Shown: piece after piece, positions 1,562-62,025 of the stretch
Layout: every line of letters starts with the position of its first letter
Position numbering within the stretch: position 1 is the first letter of the stretch
DNA from: Escherichia phage ECML-4
Strand: one strand, 5' to 3'
Length of the DNA: 64,000 bases
Sequence record: JX128257
Position numbers and translations under genes: made by a program
Notes under the pieces: model-generated
The model's database searches: none
Seen by the model: the letters and a program-made list of their open reading frames with translations, nothing else
What the model was told of the DNA's origin: nothing

Positions 1562-1602
1562 TTTAAATACCTCTGCAATCACTGCGGAGGTATTTTCTTA
1601 TG
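1562..1602 (+). promoter_or_regulatory. late-promoter-like motif TTTAAATA overlapping a 13 bp hairpin that sequesters the endolysin SD
   Basis: Inverted repeat AAATACCTCTGCA / TGCGGAGGTATTT (about 1565-1595) contains GGAGG 10 nt before the ATG at 1600. Confidence 0.45.
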
Positions 1603-2499: not shown

Positions 2500-3339
2500 A
2501 TGCAATCTGCGTCTAAAGTTGTATCCATGAAGCCAGCGAAGACAAAATCTGCTCGTAAGAAAGACACCATCCAGAAGGAAGAAGACTGGATGAAGTTTTC
2601 CAAAGGCGATTTCAAAATTGCTCCGTTCAATGGCCTCTCAGAAAATCAGAACCTCGCATATCAATCCGCACTCAATGAACATCTCACTATCGCTATCGGT
2701 CCGGCAGGTACAGGCAAATCCTATTGTGGTGCGTCCGCTGCTGCCAAGCATCTGATTGACAAAACCATCAACAAGATTATCATCACGCGTTCTCCTTTAC
2801 CGACTGGAACCACAGCGGGGTTCCGGCCTGGTGACACATATGAAAAGCTGATGCCTTATTTGATGCCGCTCATACAGACATTCAAAAAGGTTCTCAAAAC
2901 AGATACGGGTTCCGACGGTTTCTTCAACTATCTGTGGGAGAAACGCATCATAGAAATTCAAGACCTTGAAACTGTGAAGGGGATGACTTTCGATGATTGT
3001 TTCCTGATTATCGAAGAGGCGCAGGAATGCGATATGGAGCAACTGAAAAACTTATTGACTCGTGCTTCAGATTCTTCGTACATCTTCGTGAATGGAGATA
3101 TCAAACAGTCTAACAAGCGACTGCGTGATAGTGCGTTACAGACGTATGTGGATTCCTTTAAAGACTTCAACAACAAGCTGGAAACAGGTTCTTTGCAAAT
3201 TGACGGTGTAGAAATCGGAGATGAATATCCTGAGTGGGTTCAGCCATTCAGCATCATCGAATTCGATAAGTCTGATCGTAATGGTCGCGGTAACTTCACC
3301 CGCCTGATGTTAGAAATTAACGACCTGTACAACATTTAA
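2500..3339 (+). CDS. phoH: PhoH-like ATPase
   Basis: Walker A GPAGTGKS and PhoH-family layout; ATG at 2500 with AGGAAGG SD (track start 2464 is GTG). Confidence 0.85.
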   Translation: MQSASKVVSMKPAKTKSARKKDTIQKEEDWMKFSKGDFKIAPFNGLSENQNLAYQSALNEHLTIAIGPAGTGKSYCGASAAAKHLIDKTINKIIITRSPLPTGTTAGFRPGDTYEKLMPYLMPLIQTFKKVLKTDTGSDGFFNYLWEKRIIEIQDLETVKGMTFDDCFLIIEEAQECDMEQLKNLLTRASDSSYIFVNGDIKQSNKRLRDSALQTYVDSFKDFNNKLETGSLQIDGVEIGDEYPEWVQPFSIIEFDKSDRNGRGNFTRLMLEINDLYNI

Positions 3340-3423
3340 ATACCACACGAACTTCCCCGTCGCCTTCAATCCATGGAGGCGACGTATAATAACAGCCTGC
3401 ATTAACACAAACCGAGGATCGCT

Positions 3424-5706
3424 ATGATTAACATCATAAAGCGGGACGGATCTTCTGTCCCCTTTGACATTGAAAAACTCCACACTGTTCTTGAACGTGC
3501 CTGTGAAGGATTAGAAGGAGTTTCGGTGTCTGAGGTGGAAGCAGCATCGAAGATTCAGTTCACAGACAATATGAAAACCGAACGCATTCAGGATATTATC
3601 ATCCAAGCGGCGGCTACATTGATTTCTGTAGAAAAACCCAACTACCAATATGTTGCTGCCCGTCTGAAATCGTATGACCTGCGCAAAGTCGTCTATGGGC
3701 GATACAAGCCACCTCATTTGCTTGATATATTCGCTAAAAACATCAAGCAGGGCGTTTATGATCGTGAATTCCTCGAACTCTATACGAAAGAAGAATTTGA
3801 AGAACTGAACACGGTCATCAATCACAAACGCGACAAGAATTTTACTTGGGCGGCTATGGGCCAGCTCACGCAAAAATATCTTTTGCGCGATCGCTCAGCA
3901 GACAGCAAAGTATATTACGAAACGCCTCAAGTCATGTATATGGCGATCGCGATGGCCCTGTTCTCTGCATGGGATAAAGAAACTCGCCTGACGATGGTGA
4001 AGAAATTTTATGAATACGCCAGTACAGGTAAATTCAGTCTTCCAACACCCATCATGTCCGGCGTTCGTACCCCAACCCGCCAATTCAGTTCTTGTGTTCT
4101 TATCAAAACCGGTGACACTTTGGACTCAATCAATGCTACAGCCAAAAGTATTGTTGATTATGTATCCAAACGCGCTGGGATCGGATTTGATGTCGGAGCA
4201 ATTCGTGGCATCGGTAGCCCTATCCGAAAAGGTGAAATGGTGCACACAGGTCTGGTTCCTTTCATAAAATATCTGACTGGGGCATTAAAGTCTTGCTCTC
4301 AAGGCGGTATTCGTGGCGGATCAGCAACTTGCTATATCCCTATCTGGCATTATCAATTTGATGATGTTGTGGTCCTGAAGAACAACCGTGGTCTTGAAGA
4401 GAACCGTGAACGCCGTATCGACTATGGTATTCAGATCAACCGCGTCATGTTCGAACGTCTGGTGAACAAACAACCCCTGTATTTGTTCGATCCGAAAGAC
4501 AACCGCGATATGTACGAAGCGTTTTTCGCAGATGTCGATAAGTTCCGTACCCTGTACGACAACATGGTCAAAGCTGCTGATGCTGGTTTGGTTCGTGCCA
4601 AGAAGATGAATGCGGAAGAAGTATTCCAGATGTTGTTGGATCAGCGTTCAGATACAGGCCGCATCTACATCGCGTTTGTCGACCACATGAACCAGTACAG
4701 CCCATTCAATCTAGACACAATCTATAGTTCTAATCTGTGTCTGGAGATTGCGCTTCCTACTCGTGAATTCCAACAGTACGACGATGAAGAAGGTCGGATC
4801 GCTCTGTGTACTTTGGCCTCTTTTAACCTGACGGCGTTTGAAGACCCGACAGAAATGGAAGACGTTGCATATGTCTTGGTTTCGGCTTTGGATATGCTGC
4901 TGGAATACCAAGATTATCCAGCACGTCAAGCCCGTCTGGCTGTAGAAGAATATCGTCCTCTGGGTATCGGTGTCGTCAACGTCGCGCATTTCTTCGCCAA
5001 GAACTTCACGGGGTATGGATCTCCTGTTGGGTTAGAACTCCTGGACAAGTGGATGGCGCACCTGCATTTCTATCTGGTAAAGGCTTCGAATCGTCTGGCC
5101 ATGAAGTTTGGGGCATGTAAGAAGGAAACCATTCATCGTTCTGGTAAGATAACAGCCGACCTTCAACCGTTGCCGCTGGATATCCTCCCCAATGGTAAAA
5201 AGCCGGAAGGTATGGCATACGGCCTTGACTGGGACGGTTTGAAAGACTCTCTGCGTTGCCATGGTATCCGCAATGCTACTCTCTTGGCGATAGCACCAAC
5301 TGAAAGCTCCTCTCAGGTGCTGAACGCCACGAATGGTATAGAGCCACCCAAAGGCCTCATCAGTATCAAAGGCAGCAAGGATGGCGTCTACAAGCAGATC
5401 GTTCCGGACGTTGAAACCCTTGGTCCTCTATATGACCTGAAATGGAATCTGTCTTGTATCGACTATTTGAAAACAGCGGCGGTCGCCCAGCGTTGGGTTG
5501 ACCAATCCATCAGCGTTAATACACATTATGATCCAGAGAAATTCCCAGACGGGAAGATCCCGCGCTCTCTCATGATGCAGGATATTCTGTCTTTCTACAT
5601 GTGGGGTGGTAAAACTCTGTATTACAACACCAACAAAGACTCTAAGGAAGATGAAGAGTTGAAACAAATTGAAGATCCGAATCACTGTGACACCTGTGTT
5701 GTCTGA
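3424..5706 (+). CDS. nrdA: ribonucleotide reductase class Ia large subunit
   Basis: 760 aa; N-terminal ATP-cone (MINIIKRDGSSVPFDIEKL) and alpha-chain length and architecture; GAGGA SD. Confidence 0.95.
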   Translation: MINIIKRDGSSVPFDIEKLHTVLERACEGLEGVSVSEVEAASKIQFTDNMKTERIQDIIIQAAATLISVEKPNYQYVAARLKSYDLRKVVYGRYKPPHLLDIFAKNIKQGVYDREFLELYTKEEFEELNTVINHKRDKNFTWAAMGQLTQKYLLRDRSADSKVYYETPQVMYMAIAMALFSAWDKETRLTMVKKFYEYASTGKFSLPTPIMSGVRTPTRQFSSCVLIKTGDTLDSINATAKSIVDYVSKRAGIGFDVGAIRGIGSPIRKGEMVHTGLVPFIKYLTGALKSCSQGGIRGGSATCYIPIWHYQFDDVVVLKNNRGLEENRERRIDYGIQINRVMFERLVNKQPLYLFDPKDNRDMYEAFFADVDKFRTLYDNMVKAADAGLVRAKKMNAEEVFQMLLDQRSDTGRIYIAFVDHMNQYSPFNLDTIYSSNLCLEIALPTREFQQYDDEEGRIALCTLASFNLTAFEDPTEMEDVAYVLVSALDMLLEYQDYPARQARLAVEEYRPLGIGVVNVAHFFAKNFTGYGSPVGLELLDKWMAHLHFYLVKASNRLAMKFGACKKETIHRSGKITADLQPLPLDILPNGKKPEGMAYGLDWDGLKDSLRCHGIRNATLLAIAPTESSSQVLNATNGIEPPKGLISIKGSKDGVYKQIVPDVETLGPLYDLKWNLSCIDYLKTAAVAQRWVDQSISVNTHYDPEKFPDGKIPRSLMMQDILSFYMWGGKTLYYNTNKDSKEDEELKQIEDPNHCDTCVV

Positions 5707-5776: not shown

Positions 5777-6880
5777 ATGAACGAACAAAAGCAATTCTCA
5801 GTATTCGATCCATCTTCAAATAATACAGGACTGCCATTCTTTGGCGACCCTGTAAGTATCCAGCGTTATGACAAAGTGGCTTGGCCTTTTGTTCAAAAAT
5901 GGTATGAAAAAGGCCTCAGCCAATTCTGGCGTCCGGAAGAAGTGGATGTCACCAAAGACAAAGCGGACTTTGCCACTCTATCCGCTGCGGAACAACACAT
6001 CTACTTCAGCAACCTGAAACGCCAAACCATGCTGGACTCTATTCAGGGCGCTGCTCCGTTCGAAGCGTTTGGCCCGTGGGCATCAACACCAGAAGCGCAA
6101 TTTGCTATTCTGGAATGGACGCGCCAAGAAGCCATCCACTCACTATCTTACACGCATATCCTTCGTAACACAGTGAATGATCCTGGTATCGTTTTTGACC
6201 ATGTTCTGGACGTTCAGGAGATCGTAGATTGCGCCGGACAGATCAGCGTATACTACGACGACATGGTGCGTTACAGCGGGATGCGTATGGCTGGACGCGC
6301 GTTCACCCGTGAAGACATCATGAACGCCAAGCGTGCATTCTGGCGTGCTCTGTTTGCTGCCAACTCCCTCGAAGGCGTCCGTTTCTATGTTTCATTTGCG
6401 TGTTCTTGGGCATTCATGCAATTCCTCAACAAAATGGAAGGCAATGCCAAGATTATTCGCCAGATCGCTCGTGACGAGCAAGATCACCTCATTCTGACAC
6501 AGACTTTCCTGAATCGTCTTCCGTTGTTAGACCCTGATTTTGGTATCATCCGTGAAGAACTGCGTGGCGAAATGACCCAGATGTATGTGGATGTGGTCAA
6601 CCAAGAGAAAGAGTGGGCGAACTATCTGTTCAAAGACGGATCCATGCTGGGTCTGAACGCAAATATCTTACACCAAATGGTTGATTGGCTAGCAACACAT
6701 CGTATGGGCGCGATTGGCCACCCGTACCCTGGGCAAGCCCGTAAAGACAATCCGGTTCCATGGATAAATGAGTGGCTAGATAATAAAACAATGCAATACG
6801 CATTACAGGAAGCGGAAGCCCCTGATTATCTGACTGGTGTCCTTACTGGATCAGTCTCCGACGGTCTGAAATTTGTTTAA
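5777..6880 (+). CDS. nrdB: ribonucleotide reductase class Ia small subunit
   Basis: 367 aa, immediately after nrdA, ferritin-like beta-subunit pattern. Confidence 0.9.
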   Translation: MNEQKQFSVFDPSSNNTGLPFFGDPVSIQRYDKVAWPFVQKWYEKGLSQFWRPEEVDVTKDKADFATLSAAEQHIYFSNLKRQTMLDSIQGAAPFEAFGPWASTPEAQFAILEWTRQEAIHSLSYTHILRNTVNDPGIVFDHVLDVQEIVDCAGQISVYYDDMVRYSGMRMAGRAFTREDIMNAKRAFWRALFAANSLEGVRFYVSFACSWAFMQFLNKMEGNAKIIRQIARDEQDHLILTQTFLNRLPLLDPDFGIIREELRGEMTQMYVDVVNQEKEWANYLFKDGSMLGLNANILHQMVDWLATHRMGAIGHPYPGQARKDNPVPWINEWLDNKTMQYALQEAEAPDYLTGVLTGSVSDGLKFV

Positions 6881-6889
6881 AGGTGAGAA

Positions 6890-7114
6890 ATGATTACGAT
6901 CTATTCCAAACAAGGTTGTGCGCAGTGTTTACAAGCCGAAAACATCTGCCGCATTCGCGGTATTGAACACAAGATTCTGAAACTTGATAAAGATTACAAG
7001 CTGGAAGAATTACAGAAAATCACTGGTAAACAGCGCATGTCTATGCCCGTGATTGTCCTGGCTGATCAAACCGTGACCGATGTTACTGGACTCGCCGCAA
7101 GTTTAAAACGTTGA
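6890..7114 (+). CDS. glutaredoxin-like redoxin (NrdH/NrdC-like)
   Basis: 74 aa with N-terminal CxxC (CAQC) and position directly after nrdB. Confidence 0.7.
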   Translation: MITIYSKQGCAQCLQAENICRIRGIEHKILKLDKDYKLEELQKITGKQRMSMPVIVLADQTVTDVTGLAASLKR

Positions 7115-7120
7115 TATTTC

Positions 7121-7150
7121 AAAGCCCCTGATCCAGGGGCTTTACTTTTG
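7121..7150 (+). terminator. rho-independent terminator after the redoxin gene
   Basis: AGCCCCTG-ATC-CAGGGGCT stem followed by T-rich tract. Confidence 0.65.
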
Positions 7151-7220
7151 AAACCTTCCCGCCTATACTTCCCAATAATTCATTGGCAAACGCCACAAAT
7201 TGAACAGCAGGAACTATATC

Positions 7221-7454
7221 ATGACCAATTCTGAAATATATCATGCTTCTATGCATTATCATGACCTACGCGCCCGTCCAGGACACGCCAAACAAAAAGC
7301 ATTCTGGGTAGCAGAACTCAGATTACGCCGTGCTGTCGTTAACCACCAAATAATCATGAATCGGAAAAACGACAAATCACCGTTGTTGGCAGATTCTTAT
7401 CTTGAACTCCGCACAGCCTATGAACAAGCCAAACAGCACGTAATAGGAGCATAA
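7221..7454 (+). CDS. hypothetical protein
   Basis: ATG at 7221 with AGGA SD (track start 7200 is TTG). Confidence 0.45.
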   Translation: MTNSEIYHASMHYHDLRARPGHAKQKAFWVAELRLRRAVVNHQIIMNRKNDKSPLLADSYLELRTAYEQAKQHVIGA

Positions 7455-7455
7455 T

Positions 7456-7917
7456 ATGTCCAACAAATTACTCACCAACCCCCGCCACAACTTTGGTTAT
7501 ATCCAATTACCAGAAGTGATAGACACGTTGTTTGCTGAAGACAAAGAAGAAGTTTGTTGGGCACCAGCGACCCTTATTGAACGCGAAATTTTCAAATCTG
7601 AAGTAGACGTGATGTTCCGCATCGGTTCATCCGGAGACCTTCATTATTTGGGGAAAGTGACCGAGTTAAAGACCTGCCATGCTCAAAGATTTTTGCGCAT
7701 TGACACCACTCAATGTGAAGACTTTTCATTCAGCATTCTGCGTGAATATGTTCAGGTCAACCGTCCTGTGTATCAACACCGTCCTTATTTGACGTCGATG
7801 CATATAGACAATTATATTTCCGACATTCATTTACGTGCATCAACTATCCATGAAGAAGATTCTGGTATCGCGGTTGATACAGTACTCAATATGATCGTCA
7901 TTACTTTGGTGCCGTGA
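7456..7917 (+). CDS. hypothetical protein
   Basis: ORF with TAGGAG SD. Confidence 0.5.
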   Translation: MSNKLLTNPRHNFGYIQLPEVIDTLFAEDKEEVCWAPATLIEREIFKSEVDVMFRIGSSGDLHYLGKVTELKTCHAQRFLRIDTTQCEDFSFSILREYVQVNRPVYQHRPYLTSMHIDNYISDIHLRASTIHEEDSGIAVDTVLNMIVITLVP

Positions 7918-7918
7918 T

Positions 7919-8257
7919 ATGTACAAATTCCCGATATTAGAAACAGTGTACTCTGTTCACAAAAAGGAAGGTCCATTATTTGAAAATTTGGATATTCTGT
8001 TAAAGGAAAATGTCCGTATCCCTCTGGTTCTAAAGAGAAAGCAAATAGGATATAGCCATGACTGCCAAATAATGCGTTCTGAAGGCACCGACGTCTTACG
8101 CATCCGTCTAACATTTGTGTTGACAGGTAATCTGGACGGTATGGTGGTTAATCTGAAACCAACCACCATAGTCCACAGAACGGGTGGGAAAATATTATAT
8201 CGTTTATTAACTCATTTTGAGTTGGTGACAAAATGCTCTGCCACGGACGTTCTTTAA
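7919..8257 (+). CDS. hypothetical protein
   Basis: ORF abutting the previous stop. Confidence 0.45.
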   Translation: MYKFPILETVYSVHKKEGPLFENLDILLKENVRIPLVLKRKQIGYSHDCQIMRSEGTDVLRIRLTFVLTGNLDGMVVNLKPTTIVHRTGGKILYRLLTHFELVTKCSATDVL

Positions 8258-8638
8258 TCAATTTGTCCGTTTCAACCATATGGTGTCTGTTATCGGCTCT
8301 GGGTTGTTGACCACATAAAAAGTTATGGTTACACCCAGAGAATGATAATCGTCAGACAATGACACATCAACTGATTGTATCTCCGCTCTCGGTTCAAATA
8401 AAGCAATCGCGTCTTCAACTTTGTTTTTAACATCAACCTGAATTGTGGGATTCGTATTTTCCCCCAGCATGGTATACAGCCCAGCCCCGATACTTGGGTA
8501 TGTCGGCCAATCCCCAACTGTTGTCATCACGATATTTCGTACGGATTGCAACACGGCATAGACACCTGTTTTCTTTGTGACATCTTTGGTGACCGGATGC
8601 ATGCCAAACTTCAGGTCAATGTCCTTGTACTCTTTCAT
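8258..8638 (-). CDS. gp25: baseplate wedge protein, gp25-like
   Basis: Size and sequence pattern of the T4 gp25 / GPW family; ATG at 8638 with AAGGGG SD (track start 8671 is GTG). Confidence 0.75.
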   Translation of the reverse strand: MKEYKDIDLKFGMHPVTKDVTKKTGVYAVLQSVRNIVMTTVGDWPTYPSIGAGLYTMLGENTNPTIQVDVKNKVEDAIALFEPRAEIQSVDVSLSDDYHSLGVTITFYVVNNPEPITDTIWLKRTN

Positions 8639-8702
8639 GTTAAACCCCTTTGGATATTGCCTCTCCGGCACGAGAGGGCATTATCTACCCTCGCCAGTGT
8701 AA

Positions 8703-10328
8703 TCATGCGTCTTTACCACCAAAGTTGCCGCCATTATCCTCCAGTTCCGGTTTTATATCAATTGGACCAGGACCAGAAGTAGATACTGGAGTTGCCCCAG
8801 CGCGTGATGCAGCACGACCAGCACCTTCAGCATATTTGATGTTGCCTTCAATAGTCTGAGCCACCGACAACTTATCACAAACTATTTCACTAGCCAGTAT
8901 TTTAGGCACTTTCAAAGTGTTGGAAACTTCCAACATCTCACAGATGATACGCATCACGTTTTGCGCCTGAATTTCGGCCAGCTGTGAAAATTTCATCAAC
9001 GCCGTGCCAGCAACCACATTGGAGTAGTTCGATGAATGTAGATGATAGACCTCACCTGTCTTGCGCTGAACTTCAGTCCCACCAATGGTCAGGTTGTGAT
9101 CACGACCAACATAGTAACGTTTGTCAAACATCGTCAGATCATAATGATCTTTGACTGATTTATTGACCACGTCCCCGTCAGGAAGCATCTGCTTATAAGA
9201 CCCCGAGGAGTGCATCCAATGGAGACGTTCCCCGCCTGGTGTGTCATCAACCTCCATGATATGCCCTGACCGAGATGCCATGACATTGTTGTAAGGATAA
9301 CGAGACCCGCCAGCAGAAGGAACCGACACCTCTCCTGTGTTATCAATATCTTGAACACGCCCAGAAGGGGGCGGAGTTTCCTGAACTTTTGGTGTACGAT
9401 CAGGGATTGGCTCAGACCATTTACCATTTTGTTGCGCAGGAGCCGCCGATGCTGTCGTAGCAGGACCAGGCCAACGATAACCCAACACAGATGAGCGGCT
9501 GAAGCGACTCACCTTCACAGAATCTGATTGGTTGCCTCCAATACACCAAACATAATTGGCATCGAATTTCTGCACGAACGCAACGTGTCCGAATGTTGGG
9601 TTGTTGCCACGCCGGAATACAACAACAGCGCCGTAGCGGGGTTCCGACAAAGGGGAACCCCATTGCAAATATGAACGAGCCAAAGCCGAGCGCGTTGAAG
9701 TGTATCCTGCTTGGATTAACACCCATCCCACAAATGAAGCGCACCAGCTGACTTCATCTTCCGAAGCGCCCAAAGATGTTGTCTTGTGATATTCCAAAAT
9801 CCTTGGGTTATTATTGAATTTGCCAGAATATTCTTTGACACCTAATTCACCACGAGCCACTGTCATCCATTTCTCAGGATCATAACCGTCCACAGGCGGT
9901 TGAGGTTCTGGTTGTGGGTCGTCTTCAATCTTGACAGGAACATTTTCAACGGCGTTATATTTCTGTCTTTCTATAGATTGAACAACCTGGCCCAGCGCCA
10001 ACGGGTTTGTGTCTGAACCATCCGTTGGTGTCGCCGCTGGCCAAACCCAGGCGATACGAATATTTTGGTATGCTTCATCCAAAGCAAATCCCATAACATC
10101 CGACCCGACTGTAATACCCGTTGGAGACCAGCCTAAACCTGCCGAGGAGGCGTTGGATGCTGGCATGAGCATTTTACCCCAAGGCAATAATTCGGTAGGT
10201 AAGAGAGTGGTATCTTCCGTGTGTACACCATAGATGCGCACAGCGACGCGCCCGTTCTGGTCGGGATCATTCACGTCTTCAACGCGCCCGTAAAACCAAC
10301 GCAAGTTGTCTAACATATTGAAACCCAT
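8703..10328 (-). CDS. gp5: baseplate hub / tail-associated cell-wall hydrolase, gp5-like with CHAP (NlpC/P60-type) domain
   Basis: N-terminal gp5-like OB region, central Cys-His hydrolase motifs (SWCASFVGWVL ... GHVAFV), position next to gp25. Confidence 0.75.
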   Translation of the reverse strand: MGFNMLDNLRWFYGRVEDVNDPDQNGRVAVRIYGVHTEDTTLLPTELLPWGKMLMPASNASSAGLGWSPTGITVGSDVMGFALDEAYQNIRIAWVWPAATPTDGSDTNPLALGQVVQSIERQKYNAVENVPVKIEDDPQPEPQPPVDGYDPEKWMTVARGELGVKEYSGKFNNNPRILEYHKTTSLGASEDEVSWCASFVGWVLIQAGYTSTRSALARSYLQWGSPLSEPRYGAVVVFRRGNNPTFGHVAFVQKFDANYVWCIGGNQSDSVKVSRFSRSSVLGYRWPGPATTASAAPAQQNGKWSEPIPDRTPKVQETPPPSGRVQDIDNTGEVSVPSAGGSRYPYNNVMASRSGHIMEVDDTPGGERLHWMHSSGSYKQMLPDGDVVNKSVKDHYDLTMFDKRYYVGRDHNLTIGGTEVQRKTGEVYHLHSSNYSNVVAGTALMKFSQLAEIQAQNVMRIICEMLEVSNTLKVPKILASEIVCDKLSVAQTIEGNIKYAEGAGRAASRAGATPVSTSGPGPIDIKPELEDNGGNFGGKDA

Positions 10329-10342
10329 TAGTCAATTAGAAT

Positions 10343-10352
10343 CATGGGTTAT
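10343..10352 (-). promoter_or_regulatory. near-consensus late promoter (CATAAATA) upstream of gp5-like gene
   Basis: Reverse complement of GTTATTTATG about 20 nt upstream of the ATG at 10328. Confidence 0.35.
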
Positions 10353-10649
10353 TTATGGCGGGGATTTGAAATCTGTCGAATAGTAATATTATAGGAAGCT
10401 CTGCTTCCGTTCAACTTTATTCTTTTCGTTTCTACTCGCTGAAGCTCGTAACACCGCCTTGACAGGCAGTCCCATTCCAATGCCATGGAGGCATAAAGGC
10501 GAGGAAAATACTGTACACCTCAGAACATGCGTAGAAAAGGATTATTTTTGCTTCAAAACAAATTCAAACCCCAATTTACACAACACTTACTTCAGCAACA
10601 ACGGTGTTATAGCAATTTAAGGTTAAACGTTCCTGTCTTAACCTATAAA

Positions 10650-10835: not shown

Positions 10836-11639
10836 TTAAATGAAAATTTCAGTGACACTGTTAAATTTGACTTCATGTTCTTTCCCACACGAAGGACATT
10901 TAATTTTCGTCGCGTAACGGATACGAGGAATCTTTTTAAAGAAATCGTCGGATATATCTTGAACAATCTCAGATTCAATATTTTCCCCCACCCATTTAAC
11001 AAATTCATCTTTGACGCGTTGACGTTCTTTAGCAACATCAGGTGCTATGCCAGGCTCTGCCGGATTCTCTACTTTCCAAACCTGACCATCATCGTCATAC
11101 AAACAATCAATAAATGTCGCGATCATTTGCTCCACAGATGATGCTTCGTTGAGCACTGAGGCGTCCGAGAAGGACGGTTGACGCATCTTGATGTGATAGC
11201 CACCAGGGAGGTCAAATGTTTCCCTGAAGCCTTCTGGGGACACGCATTTCACTTGGTTGAGGGGGATCGGTAAAACAAGTTCTTGACCACATTCTTTAAG
11301 GCCAGAAACTGGTTCTTCACCTTCATTTGTGTCGGATGGAACTTTGTTGTTACATTTGTATCGTATCTTCATGACCTCGCCGATAGATATACAGCGCATC
11401 TTTAAAAATACTTCTTCAGTAACACCGATTGGCAGTTTACTAAAGGGAACCCCAGCGTCAACACAACTATCAAACAGTTGCTCCAGCGTCGCCACACGTT
11501 CACTCATAGGAGTGTTCGGATCAGCAACCTGAAGTAACATGGTCTGTTGCCCTGCTGTAAAAGCGCGGTATTTAATCACCGTCGGCCAGAAATCACTTTT
11601 GTGTGTTCTCTCAGTTTTGGGCAATGATGGTAAATTCAT
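10836..11639 (-). CDS. late structural protein with C-terminal zinc ribbon (possible baseplate hub component)
   Basis: ATG at 11639 with GGAG SD and TATAAATA 29 nt upstream; C-terminal CPSCGKEH motif. The longer track ORF start overlaps the divergent gene. Confidence 0.55.
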   Translation of the reverse strand: MNLPSLPKTERTHKSDFWPTVIKYRAFTAGQQTMLLQVADPNTPMSERVATLEQLFDSCVDAGVPFSKLPIGVTEEVFLKMRCISIGEVMKIRYKCNNKVPSDTNEGEEPVSGLKECGQELVLPIPLNQVKCVSPEGFRETFDLPGGYHIKMRQPSFSDASVLNEASSVEQMIATFIDCLYDDDGQVWKVENPAEPGIAPDVAKERQRVKDEFVKWVGENIESEIVQDISDDFFKKIPRIRYATKIKCPSCGKEHEVKFNSVTEIFI

Positions 11640-11667
11640 AATGTATCTCCACGGTATATTGTAACCA

Positions 11668-11675
11668 TATTTATA
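11668..11675 (-). promoter_or_regulatory. T4-type late promoter motif TATAAATA (minus strand)
   Basis: Exact TATAAATA on the minus strand upstream of the start at 11639. Confidence 0.5.
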
Positions 11676-12676: not shown

Positions 12677-12725
12677 TCCGGTCTAAATACCCATAACACA
12701 ATGAAACTTCGTTATGGGTATTTTT

Positions 12726-13325
12726 ATGAAATTTTGCGGAATCGACTATTCTTATGGCTGTCCTGCCATGTGCTTCTGGGATGATAAAGATCCTTTGGAT
12801 TTTGACCATCTTCATTTCTATGCGCATCATACTGTAGAAAAACATTGTCGTCAGGTACGGCATAACATCCTCATTTTACGCCAGCCGAAATATGAATCCC
12901 CAGAAGAACGCTTCTACAATATCTCCAAATGGGCCGAAGCTGTTCTTCTAACCGAGAAGCCTGATTTCATCACCCTTGAGGGGTACGCAATGGGCAACTC
13001 GAAGAATTCCAATAACATATGCCAGACTGCTGAAAATACATCTTTATTGAAGCAAGCAATGCGCCGGAATAATATGGAATTCCAGATCGTCACTCCTTCT
13101 TTCGTTAAAAAGCATTTCTGTGGTAAAGGAAACGCCGATAAATTGGTAATGATCGATCATTTCGAGAAGCTGTTCAACGTTAAGATGCGTGGTATAATGG
13201 ACATGTTGGACGTGAAGGATCCAAAGCCTATCGATGATCTTGTAGACTCATTCGCAAACATGGTGTCTGGACCTTACTTCATAGAAAATTATCCCGATTT
13301 CAATAGAGGTGTAAGAAATGATTAA
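12726..13325 (+). CDS. RuvC-like Holliday junction resolvase (putative)
   Basis: N-terminal GIDYS, internal LEGY and DDLVDSF acidic motifs resembling RuvC/RNase H-fold resolvases; 9 bp hairpin (12689-12719) directly upstream. Confidence 0.5.
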   Translation: MKFCGIDYSYGCPAMCFWDDKDPLDFDHLHFYAHHTVEKHCRQVRHNILILRQPKYESPEERFYNISKWAEAVLLTEKPDFITLEGYAMGNSKNSNNICQTAENTSLLKQAMRRNNMEFQIVTPSFVKKHFCGKGNADKLVMIDHFEKLFNVKMRGIMDMLDVKDPKPIDDLVDSFANMVSGPYFIENYPDFNRGVRND

Positions 13326-13614: not shown

Positions 13615-13846
13615 TTATGCCTGTACAGGTTGTGGTAATTCTTTCAGTACCAGAAGGTCTTGTGCTGAACGCCATACGCCTGAATTAGATCCATGCGCTG
13701 AATGTGGCGGTGAAATCAAAATGGTCATTGGAGCACCAAAGATCGTATCTGGTGTCCGTGGCCCACAATCCGCACCTGATGGCTTCAAAGACGTATTGCG
13801 TCATATTAAGAAGCAGTCTGGGAAGGGGAATACAATCGATGTCTGA
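13601..13846 (+). CDS. FmdB-family zinc-ribbon protein
   Basis: MPFYDYACTGCG ... CAECGG pattern (two CxxC pairs); GGAGG SD. Confidence 0.55.
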   Translation: MPFYDYACTGCGNSFSTRRSCAERHTPELDPCAECGGEIKMVIGAPKIVSGVRGPQSAPDGFKDVLRHIKKQSGKGNTIDV

Positions 13847-14081
13847 CCAACAAATAGCACAAGTCCTTACACCTGATTCATTCTCAGAATTGGTGTTGAT
13901 GCGAGCGAGCCAACGCAAGGAGTCTATTCTTGAAACGATGGCCAGTGTTTGTGAAGAGTACGACATCGAAGAGGCGAAAGTTAAGAAACTGATTACACCA
14001 CCTCTCCTGTCAAGGCTAACAGCTGAATGTTCTGATGCTCGGTTGTTGAAGGGTGAATTGAAATCTAAAAAACTCATTTAA
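13839..14081 (+). CDS. hypothetical protein
   Basis: ORF overlapping the previous stop. Confidence 0.4.
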   Translation: MSDQQIAQVLTPDSFSELVLMRASQRKESILETMASVCEEYDIEEAKVKKLITPPLLSRLTAECSDARLLKGELKSKKLI

Positions 14082-16435: not shown

Positions 16436-16469
16436 GATGAGGACTCCATTTAAATAATATATCTGCTGA

Positions 16470-16477
16470 TATTTATA
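16470..16477 (-). promoter_or_regulatory. T4-type late promoter motif TATAAATA (minus strand)
   Basis: Exact TATAAATA on the minus strand in the divergent intergenic region. Confidence 0.5.
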
Positions 16478-16489
16478 AGGAGTTGACAA

Positions 16490-17194
16490 ATGGCCAAGAA
16501 CGCTATGGGTGAAGAAGACCCGTTGTTGCTTCCTGCCGAGATGGACGCCCCAGAATTGGTCAAGCGTTACATCCGCAAATATCGTCAACATTTTGGACCA
16601 GAAGCGAAACGTAATATCCGTCGGTCTCACGTGTGGTTTATGGAACGCGTATCGAAAGATGCCAATTTATCCCCCAACCACATGATGAAGGCGTTTGCTG
16701 AAAATAAACGTCCTGTTCAGGGTGTGCGCTATATTGTTGGTCGCATGTACTATTTCAAATATGATGCGCTGACCAAAGATGAACTCCCGTATTGGGATAT
16801 GTATCCTCTTGTATTCTTCTTCAATTTTGTGAAGGGTGACGGGGTAAAATTTGGGGAACGTGGTGTGACCTATCTTTATGGTCTCAACCTTCATTATTTG
16901 CCACCAAAGCTCAGATTATTAGTGTTTGAAGATCTTATCAAGTTGAGGAACGAAAGAGCGTATCGTTCTAAAACTCGTTTGAGACTTACTTGGGATGCCC
17001 TGAAACGGTTCGCCAATCACCCTCTGTACAACCATTGTGTGAAACTGTACCGCGCTGATCAATTTCGTTCACAGCTTTATGAGATTGAGCCTCAATACTG
17101 GGAAGTTGTTTTGTTTATGCGCACTGCTCGATTCCAGAAACAGAGCCAGATGTCTGTTTGGAAAGACGCTCGTCGTAAACACAAAAATGGTTAG
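16490..17194 (+). CDS. hypothetical protein
   Basis: ORF with AAGGAG SD. Confidence 0.55.
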   Translation: MAKNAMGEEDPLLLPAEMDAPELVKRYIRKYRQHFGPEAKRNIRRSHVWFMERVSKDANLSPNHMMKAFAENKRPVQGVRYIVGRMYYFKYDALTKDELPYWDMYPLVFFFNFVKGDGVKFGERGVTYLYGLNLHYLPPKLRLLVFEDLIKLRNERAYRSKTRLRLTWDALKRFANHPLYNHCVKLYRADQFRSQLYEIEPQYWEVVLFMRTARFQKQSQMSVWKDARRKHKNG

Positions 17195-61819: not shown

Positions 61820-61987
61820 TTACTTTTTCTTCAGCTCTTCCAGCTTGGCTTCAATTTGGTCCAGAATCTCTTTACCTTTCTGGACGATGGCTTCACCGTC
61901 TTGCGCGTGTTTACGAAAAACCAGAGCGCCAGCAATGAAACCAACAACCACGCCTGGGAGCGCATACACCAACAGATCTTGTAACAT
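61820..61987 (-). CDS. small single-pass membrane protein (55 aa) with its own late promoter
   Basis: ORF below the 60 aa track cutoff; GTGAGGAT SD; TATAAATA 31 nt upstream; one TM helix; terminator downstream. Confidence 0.4.
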   Translation of the reverse strand: MLQDLLVYALPGVVVGFIAGALVFRKHAQDGEAIVQKGKEILDQIEAKLEELKKK

Positions 61988-62017
61988 GATTTATATCCTC
62001 ACTTTTATAAGCAAGGA

Positions 62018-62025
62018 TATTTATA
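62018..62025 (-). promoter_or_regulatory. T4-type late promoter motif TATAAATA (minus strand)
   Basis: Exact TATAAATA upstream of the small ORF starting at 61987. Confidence 0.45.

Follow-up and report, generated by a model that had tools for sequence, protein, structure and literature searches.

The endolysin gene and its leader

The DNA analysed here, hereafter the window, is the whole 64,000-nt stretch taken from the record of Escherichia phage ECML-4 (JX128257). Its first 4 kb are 99.2–99.6% identical to Escherichia phage CBA6 and to the Salmonella phages SeF3a, Maynard and Vi01, all of which belong to the genus Kuttervirus in the family Ackermannviridae, and the window is likewise from a Kuttervirus. 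The locus around the endolysin gene comprises the following features:

1224–1529, + strand: upstream gene, phrog_10386
1551–1561, + strand: conserved block TTCACTTTCAC, adjoining the 5′ side of the motif below and kept where the upstream gene differs
1562–1569, + strand: TTTAAATA, putative −10 element of a gp55-type late promoter, with its TAAATA core at 1564–1569 corresponding to −11 to −6
1565–1577, + strand: hairpin 5′ arm AAATACCTCTGCA, holding the anti-Shine-Dalgarno sequence CCTCT
1575–1577, + strand: predicted late start (G1575–A1577), 6–8 nt past the last A of the motif, placed by T4-type geometry
1578–1582, + strand: hairpin loop ATCAC, 5 nt, where the relatives vary more than anywhere else in the element
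1583–1595, + strand: hairpin 3′ arm TGCGGAGGTATTT, holding the GGAGG Shine-Dalgarno (SD) sequence at 1586–1590; a ribosome-binding site in the Maynard and May records
1600–2394, + strand: endolysin gene, 264 aa, with PG_binding_1 and N-acetylmuramidase (PF11860, E = 4e-58) domains
2396–2417, + strand: terminator-like hairpin and T-run directly 3′ of the endolysin stop codon; a terminator in the Maynard record

Endolysin is the name that the annotation of the relatives gives to the product of 1600–2394, and this PG_binding_1 and PF11860 protein is unrelated to T4 lysozyme. The genes upstream of it, at 460–1529, lie on the same strand, and transcripts of the nearest one would enter the endolysin hairpin. 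A consensus scan for sigma-70 promoters and terminators found sigma-70-like sites at 347–418, no sigma-70 promoter immediately 5′ of the endolysin, and no terminator-like site between 1529 and 1565. Visible in the sequence, though uncalled by the scan, is a terminator-like hairpin at about 990–1012, which may stop much of the upstream read-through into the endolysin. The hairpin and T-run at 2396–2417 close what we predict to be a monocistronic endolysin unit.

The interval 1562–1602 reads TTTAAATACCTCTGCAATCACTGCGGAGGTATTTTCTTATG. A preliminary description of this DNA, made from the letters alone, had proposed that an inverted repeat here holds the endolysin SD in its 3′ arm, that RNA reading through from upstream would fold and mask the SD, and that a transcript lacking the 5′ arm would free it. 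The repeat and the placement of the SD are as described: the two arms form 13 contiguous pairs with one G-U wobble (T1574/G1586), and 9 nt lie between GGAGG and the ATG at 1600. By folding, the hairpin alone has an energy of −17.5 kcal/mol (about −18 for the leader), and its 111-nt context has a z-score of −4.5, with none of 200 shuffles folding as well. Three hairpins with a stem of at least 13 bp were found in the window; 30 dinucleotide shuffles of the 64 kb gave 0.17 on average. The proposed masking and release also agree with the computed structures. Read-through RNAs with their 5′ end at 1480 or 1530 keep the whole SD in the helix (P unpaired 0.000). With the 5′ end at 1575–1579 the unpaired probability is 0.34–0.41 for the SD and 0.84–0.93 for the AUG, and the leader energy changes from −18.0 kcal/mol with the full hairpin to −2.8 kcal/mol from the predicted late start. 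An RNA starting at 1572 retains a 6-bp stem, with the SD 0.25 unpaired. No family threshold was reached in Rfam 15, where the only two hits, both attributable to chance, scored 21.3 bits (threshold 42) and 16.3 bits (threshold 40).

The GenBank records of Maynard, Mutine and May annotate this hairpin as a terminator overlapping the ribosome-binding site. It could thus be merely a rho-independent, bidirectional-type terminator of the upstream operon, with its promoter likeness (A-tract AAATA, U-tract TATTTTCTT) and its overlap with the ribosome-binding site due to chance in a compact genome, and with the endolysin expressed by read-through. The element does share with such terminators a G+C-rich stem, a short loop, a U-rich tail and a position after a stop codon: an 8-bp G+C-rich core stem and a 5-nt loop are followed by UAUUUUCUU, 36 nt past the upstream stop codon, and AG3 and LIMEstone1 have been reported with 31–40 intergenic terminators. 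The fit of the core and the tail TATTTTCTT holds, however, only when the A/U-rich lower stem is ignored; in the full hairpin the interrupted U-tract is paired with a fixed AAATA word, and the stem holds the SD of the next gene. The consensus scan did not call the endolysin hairpin, and a terminator would leave the expression of a conserved endolysin unexplained, as the SD of the read-through RNA is locked in a −18 kcal/mol helix. Because the gene lies between two terminator-like hairpins and has its SD in this helix, a conserved endolysin needs a transcript that is begun or cut inside the hairpin.

We aligned the element from 16 relatives spanning Kuttervirus, Aglimvirinae (including Agtrevirus AG3) and Taipeivirus; endolysins at the IMG/VR loci were 84–100% identical. 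The arrangement TTCACTTTCAC-TTTAAATA-CCTnnGCA-loop-nGnGGAGGTATTT(T)CTTATG is kept in the aligned relatives, even where the upstream gene is a different one. The motif is invariant bar a single T deletion that yields CTTAAATA, GCA at 1575–1577 is invariant, and substitutions are concentrated in the loop, which reads atcac, tacat, ttcat, aacat or taaat. The 5′-arm variants CCTTCGCA and CCTTAGCA keep their pairing through G-U except in one case; three stem pairs vary between G-C and G-U only, one relative has an A.G mismatch, and another has lost the closing pair. Across the 16 relatives the endolysin hairpin has no two-sided compensatory change, and shuffles were uninformative since only one side varies. 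Given that no change is two-sided, the conservation could reflect separate constraints on a promoter and on the SD, and the aligned sequences of the endolysin element do not by themselves prove selection for pairing. The region is matched by 269 phage records, all covering at least 80% of the query, and pattern scans of IMG/VR and metagenomes for further variants returned the same 19 phage contigs and only 2 metagenome contigs.

TAAATA as a promoter-like sequence class

The motif TTTAAATA at 1562–1569 shares 5 nt with the 5′ arm of the hairpin. In T4-type late promoters TATAAATA occupies positions −13 to −6 (PMC1524935, PMC2988020), and since the 8-bp element spans these positions, +1 at the endolysin would fall at about 1575. 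Counts of TATAAATA, TTTAAATA and CTAAATA in the window reveal no over-representation (TTTAAATA, 3 found against 3.1 expected). Because the bare TTTAAATA is not enriched, the endolysin motif gains meaning only through its position and through the behaviour of TAAATA genome-wide. Two further candidate motifs, TCTAACATAACAG and the adjoining block TTCACTTTCAC, have no repeats within the window. T4 carries TTCACTTTAC about 35 nt upstream of the gene e promoter, within the upstream coding region, and its likeness to TTCACTTTCAC may be a coincidence or the remnant of a shared leader.

To describe TAAATA as a class we used 150 kb of SeF3a (4221–154220), which is 99.4% identical to and collinear with the window. 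On both strands together this DNA holds 60 TAAATA sites, 28–29 of which precede an SD and the start codon of an ORF no shorter than 50 aa, in most cases by 21–40 nt. None of the other A4T2 hexamers, 15 in all, is as rare in SeF3a as TAAATA (60 copies, against 77–165 for the others), and 43% of its copies lie 14–40 nt upstream of a start (SD plus start codon), compared with 4–12% for the other A4T2 hexamers. The rarity suggests selection against stray late-promoter cores, and depletion together with positional enrichment is the pattern expected of a short promoter element. Many TAAATA sites stand ahead of virion genes, and among the genes that follow such sites are those for the scaffold, baseplate hub, gp5, tail-tube cap, gp6 and gp2, and three tail-spike genes. 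At the endolysin the distance from motif to ATG is 30 nt, inside the 21–40-nt range of the class.

Immediately 5′ of the core, most sites have the dinucleotide nC (13 sites) or TA (5 sites), with TT at the endolysin and at a gp2-like gene; T at −12, as in the endolysin motif, occurs in only 3 of the 28 promoter-like sites. Judged from these counts, the preferred element of the family is nCTAAATA, as in Aeromonas phage Aeh1, whose late-promoter consensus is CTAAATA (PMC1524935; PMC2988020), and not an element with T4’s A at −12. The preliminary description had seen a T4-late-promoter-like motif on the 5′ arm. That TTTAAATA overlaps the arm holds, and it belongs to the TAAATA promoter-like class; a correction applies at −12, where the family’s usual base is C rather than the A of T4.

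The 2011 paper on CBA120 stated that the late-promoter sequence of this family was not yet identified (PMC3184105). A passage quoted in PMC7283392 gives ‘CTAAATAcCcc’ as a characteristic regulatory motif of ViI-like phages, and the literature examined presents it without a mechanism. At the endolysin, 1563–1573 reads TTAAATACCTC, which matches CTAAATAcCcc at 9 of 11 positions and has in common with it the TAAATA core and the CC that follows. The window holds four copies of TAAATACC against 1.4 expected, and at TAAATA sites without a hairpin the core is followed by A/T-rich sequence. The published motif, as these sites suggest, may be a composite of the late-promoter core nCTAAATA and the anti-SD strand (CCCC or CCTC) of a hairpin-bearing subclass.

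Several further sites touch on the class. The major capsid, portal and tail-tube genes (SeF3a about 6000–10540) have no exact TAAATA and instead carry CTAAGTA or CTAATTA at the equivalent distance. Since several major late genes show these variants, the promoter model is incomplete, and the fifth position of CTAAATA may be open to change in the consensus. Elsewhere in the window, CATAAATA precedes the gp5 hub/lysozyme gene (10316–10357, − strand), with a short 7-bp helix AACCCAT/ATGGGTT, and TATAAATA precedes the baseplate hub gene (11639–11675, − strand), suggesting that the true start of the latter is ATG 11639 rather than 11732. Two motifs lie divergent and back to back within 29 bp (16449–16477). 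The SeF3a annotated starts of the two genes that they precede reach upstream past the motifs and are probably too long.

16449–16456, + strand: TTTAAATA before the gp2-like DNA end protector gene, a late gene with ATG at 16490; no hairpin
16477–16470, − strand: TATAAATA before a baseplate/tail-tube gene with GTG at 16435

Genes for a T4-type late transcription apparatus are present as well. The SeF3a annotation lists the late sigma factor gp55 as SeF3a_065 and the clamp gp45 as SeF3a_032, and gp55 and gp45 homologues have been reported for CBA120, ViI and AG3 (PMC3184105; PMC3121705). The window adds a coactivator gene:

13704–14081, + strand: gp33-like late-transcription coactivator gene (PF16805, E = 1.6e-18; phrog_254, E = 1.6e-22)

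Hairpin modules at other genes

We next asked of each promoter-like site in SeF3a whether a helix of at least 9 bp can form between the 18 nt from TAAATA and the 24 nt before its own start codon. Nine of the 28 sites pair with their own pre-ATG region in this way, while permuted partners gave a mean of 0.93 and reached nine in 0 of 2000 permutations. The endolysin element is thus not unique and represents one of about nine modules per genome; the others precede three tail-spike genes, an ADP-ribosyltransferase gene and small ORFs, among further genes. The stems differ from module to module (AAATACCCCATA/TATGGGGTATTT, AAATACCCCCA/TGGGGGTATTT, ATATCCTCGC/GTGAGGATAT and others), so that it is complementarity that is kept and not sequence. 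Two aspects of the geometry are constant across the modules: every 3′ arm lies over the SD and stops 2–6 nt short of the ATG, and the hairpin starts within the TAAATA motif rather than 3′ of the predicted start. The window holds three of these modules, at the endolysin and at two other genes:

12682–12728, + strand: second module, before the gene for a RuvC-like Holliday-junction resolvase; motif TCTAAATA at 12682–12689, arms at 12685–12697 and 12711–12723, ATG at 12726
61985–62025, − strand: third module, before the gene for a 55-aa single-transmembrane protein; TATAAATA at 62025–62018, arms at 62020–62009 and 62004–61993, ATG at 61987

In the resolvase module TCTAAATA is followed by AAATACCCATAAC...GTTATGGGTATTT, and the resolvase probably starts at ATG 12726, not at ATG 12714 inside the 3′ arm. 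Here, relatives do differ on both sides of the stem: A-U is replaced by U-A, A-U by G-C, and a G:C pair is inserted, while TAAATA is invariant and the −12 base is C, G or A. MAFFT with RNAalifold misplaced the inserted G:C pair, so we folded the variants one by one, and each folds at −15 to −21 kcal/mol. The third module is a 12-bp hairpin over GAGG in front of the ORF at 61987–61820, whose product has one N-terminal transmembrane helix and a charged C-terminal tail (MLQDLLVYALPGVVVGFIAGALVF...). The CBA120 paper states that these phages have no identified holin (PMC3184105), and a membrane protein of 55 aa with endolysin-like control may be a candidate lysis protein.

Two other hairpins have a related appearance. 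On the + strand of the window at 3335–3384, the 10-mer TTTAAATACC of the endolysin sits on the phoH stop codon and is followed at 3358–3384 by an 11-bp hairpin with GGAGG in its 3′ arm and then TATAAT; this hairpin leaves the ribosome-binding site of nrdA uncovered, because the nrdA ATG is 40 nt further on (3424). At SeF3a 4819–4860, AATAAATA stands before a homing-endonuclease gene that follows the tail-sheath gene, and next comes the hairpin GCCCTCttcgGAGGGC, which covers the SD of the homing-endonuclease gene. Unlike the endolysin hairpin, this one is wholly downstream of the predicted start, so that it would persist in late transcripts.

The sister modules bear on what kind of element the endolysin hairpin is. 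Their 12–13-nt loops suit terminators poorly, and one tail-spike module has a separate canonical terminator ahead of it. Every module builds its lower stem from the specific word TAAATA/TATTT and not from a generic A/T run, and TAAATA also precedes late genes without a hairpin and is depleted elsewhere. With these observations added to the annotations and the terminator-like core weighed above, we think it unlikely that the endolysin hairpin is merely a terminator; termination may nonetheless be a second role of the hairpin, beside timing. We also considered that the inverted repeat acts as DNA, marking the edge of a cassette or a point of recombination where endolysin and tail-spike modules are exchanged, or forming a cruciform that aids opening of the late promoter. 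Conservation begins abruptly about 13–25 nt upstream of the motif, where the upstream genes of the relatives differ, and modules do precede the exchangeable tail-spike genes. Against this, stems tolerate G-U wobbles, which fit pairing in sense-strand RNA and not DNA cruciforms, and the constant position of the 3′ arm over the SD, 2–6 nt from the ATG, points to translation. A role at the DNA level therefore appears to us very improbable.

Timing model and comparison with T4

What was computed directly is a stable and conserved SD-occluding hairpin, an enriched motif class, a recurring module with compensatory changes, and a layout like that of T4 gene e. We consider it fairly likely that the endolysin leader is a timing device of the T4 gene e type, in which a late promoter is combined with an anti-SD hairpin. 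For the late start site, the early read-through and the effect on translation at the endolysin, we infer the following course. Transcripts entering from the upstream same-strand genes would carry both arms of the 13-bp hairpin of about −18 kcal/mol, which would bury the endolysin SD in the read-through RNA so that no endolysin is translated, and the hairpin would probably also terminate part of these transcripts. After the onset of replication, host RNA polymerase with phage gp55, aided by gp33 and the gp45 clamp, would read TAAATA at 1564–1569 and initiate within the 5′ arm, near G1575–A1577, about 6 nt past the element. Late transcripts would then be without the anti-SD strand, the SD would be free, and endolysin would be made only late. 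A literature search for a transcriptome, a start-site map or 5′ ends found none for any Ackermannviridae phage.

Alternatively, all endolysin transcripts might carry the full hairpin, with TAAATA either no promoter or one from which transcripts start further upstream, and the hairpin could then be a constant attenuator or 5′ stabiliser, or be opened by a trans-acting factor, nuclease cleavage or temperature. The T at −12 is unusual for the family, a low level of endolysin is plausible for a holin-gated enzyme, and a start at 1572 would keep the 6-bp stem that leaves the SD only 0.25 unpaired. The spacing of 30 nt between motif and ATG, however, fits the narrow range of the TAAATA class, and the identical 8-mer TTTAAATA precedes gp2 where there is no hairpin. 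In every module the hairpin begins inside the motif, which a simple attenuator does not need, and in the nearly identical T4 leader the mapped late 5′ ends fall inside the hairpin (PMC3014915). A hairpin present in all transcripts is, in our view, quite improbable.

If the timing device operates as proposed, it offers a testable model for delayed endolysin synthesis in phages of the Vi01/CBA120 type. Such phages are in wide use for biocontrol and therapy. The analysis also gives a working late-promoter core for the family, nCTAAATA or TATAAATA with TAAATA invariant, would correct database labels that treat such elements as simply terminators, and helps to fix start codons, the resolvase and the baseplate hub being two cases. 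In phage engineering, the 5′ arm would have to be deleted before a promoter inserted upstream could drive these genes.

A further and more tentative possibility is that the cassette of promoter, anti-SD hairpin and SD is a portable and perhaps ancestral module of T4-related phages, in which the enzyme beneath was swapped for an unrelated muramidase and which was generalised in Ackermannviridae into an insulator before about nine genes. Were this so, the nearly unchanged TAAATACCTyy...GGAGGTATT would have outlasted the replacement of the lysis enzyme, and the published CTAAATAcCcc family motif would be explained. Each of the roughly nine genes, a set that includes three tail-spike genes, the resolvase, the ADP-ribosyltransferase and the small membrane protein, would be translated from its own late promoter only and never from read-through RNA.

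The design itself has been known from T4 since 1986. Early long transcripts of T4 gene e fold into an inhibitory structure, and late ones without its 5′ part are translated well (McPheeters et al. 1986, via PMC3014915); soc, gene 49 (endonuclease VII) and I-TevI are under the same hairpin/late-promoter control (PMC3014915). The preliminary description had compared the endolysin leader with this system, and the comparison gains from the T4 sequence, where the e leader has the same layout and nearly the same letters. Read directly, the T4 gene e leader is TTATAAATACCTTCTATAAATACTTAGGAGGTATTATG. Its 11-bp hairpin pairs AAAUACCUUCU with a 3′ strand containing GGAGGUAUU, and the leader TATAAATACCTTCTATAAATACTTAGGAGGTATTATG folds at −13.3 kcal/mol, or at −2.8 kcal/mol when begun at the predicted late start. 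TAAATACCTyy and GGAGGTATT anchor its alignment with the Kuttervirus leader, so that TATAAATACCTTC...GGAGGTATT in T4 is laid out almost as in the endolysin leader, and the near-identical arrangement of the two can be written TAAATACCTTC...GGAGGTATT. In both, a late-promoter −10 element (putative at the endolysin) overlaps the 5′ arm, the anti-SD CCTYY comes directly after the motif, the predicted late start lies at the end of the 5′ arm, the 3′ arm consists of GGAGG plus TATT just before the ATG, and the regulated gene encodes a lysis enzyme.

The two systems also differ. The enzyme is a PG_binding_1 and PF11860 muramidase here and has the lysozyme fold in T4; the endolysin has one motif where T4 e has two tandem late promoters; and the −12 base is T at the endolysin and A in T4. 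The endolysin stem is longer and more stable (13 bp and −18 kcal/mol, against 11 bp and −13.3 kcal/mol at T4 e), and its U-rich tail gives it a terminator character that T4 e lacks. The resemblance extends to a second gene. By our reading the RuvC-like resolvase is the functional counterpart of T4 endonuclease VII, and its module at 12682–12728 parallels that of gene 49, although the protein family, RuvC-like, is other than that of endonuclease VII. That the resolvase also carries the module indicates that a genome of this kind, like that of T4, employs the device at several genes. What is new, then, is a near-identical leader before a different enzyme and the use of the module genome-wide: the same regulatory design is found at unrelated lysis enzymes in two phage families, and, unlike the set in T4, the modules of these phages also stand before three tail-spike genes, an ADP-ribosyltransferase gene and small ORFs.
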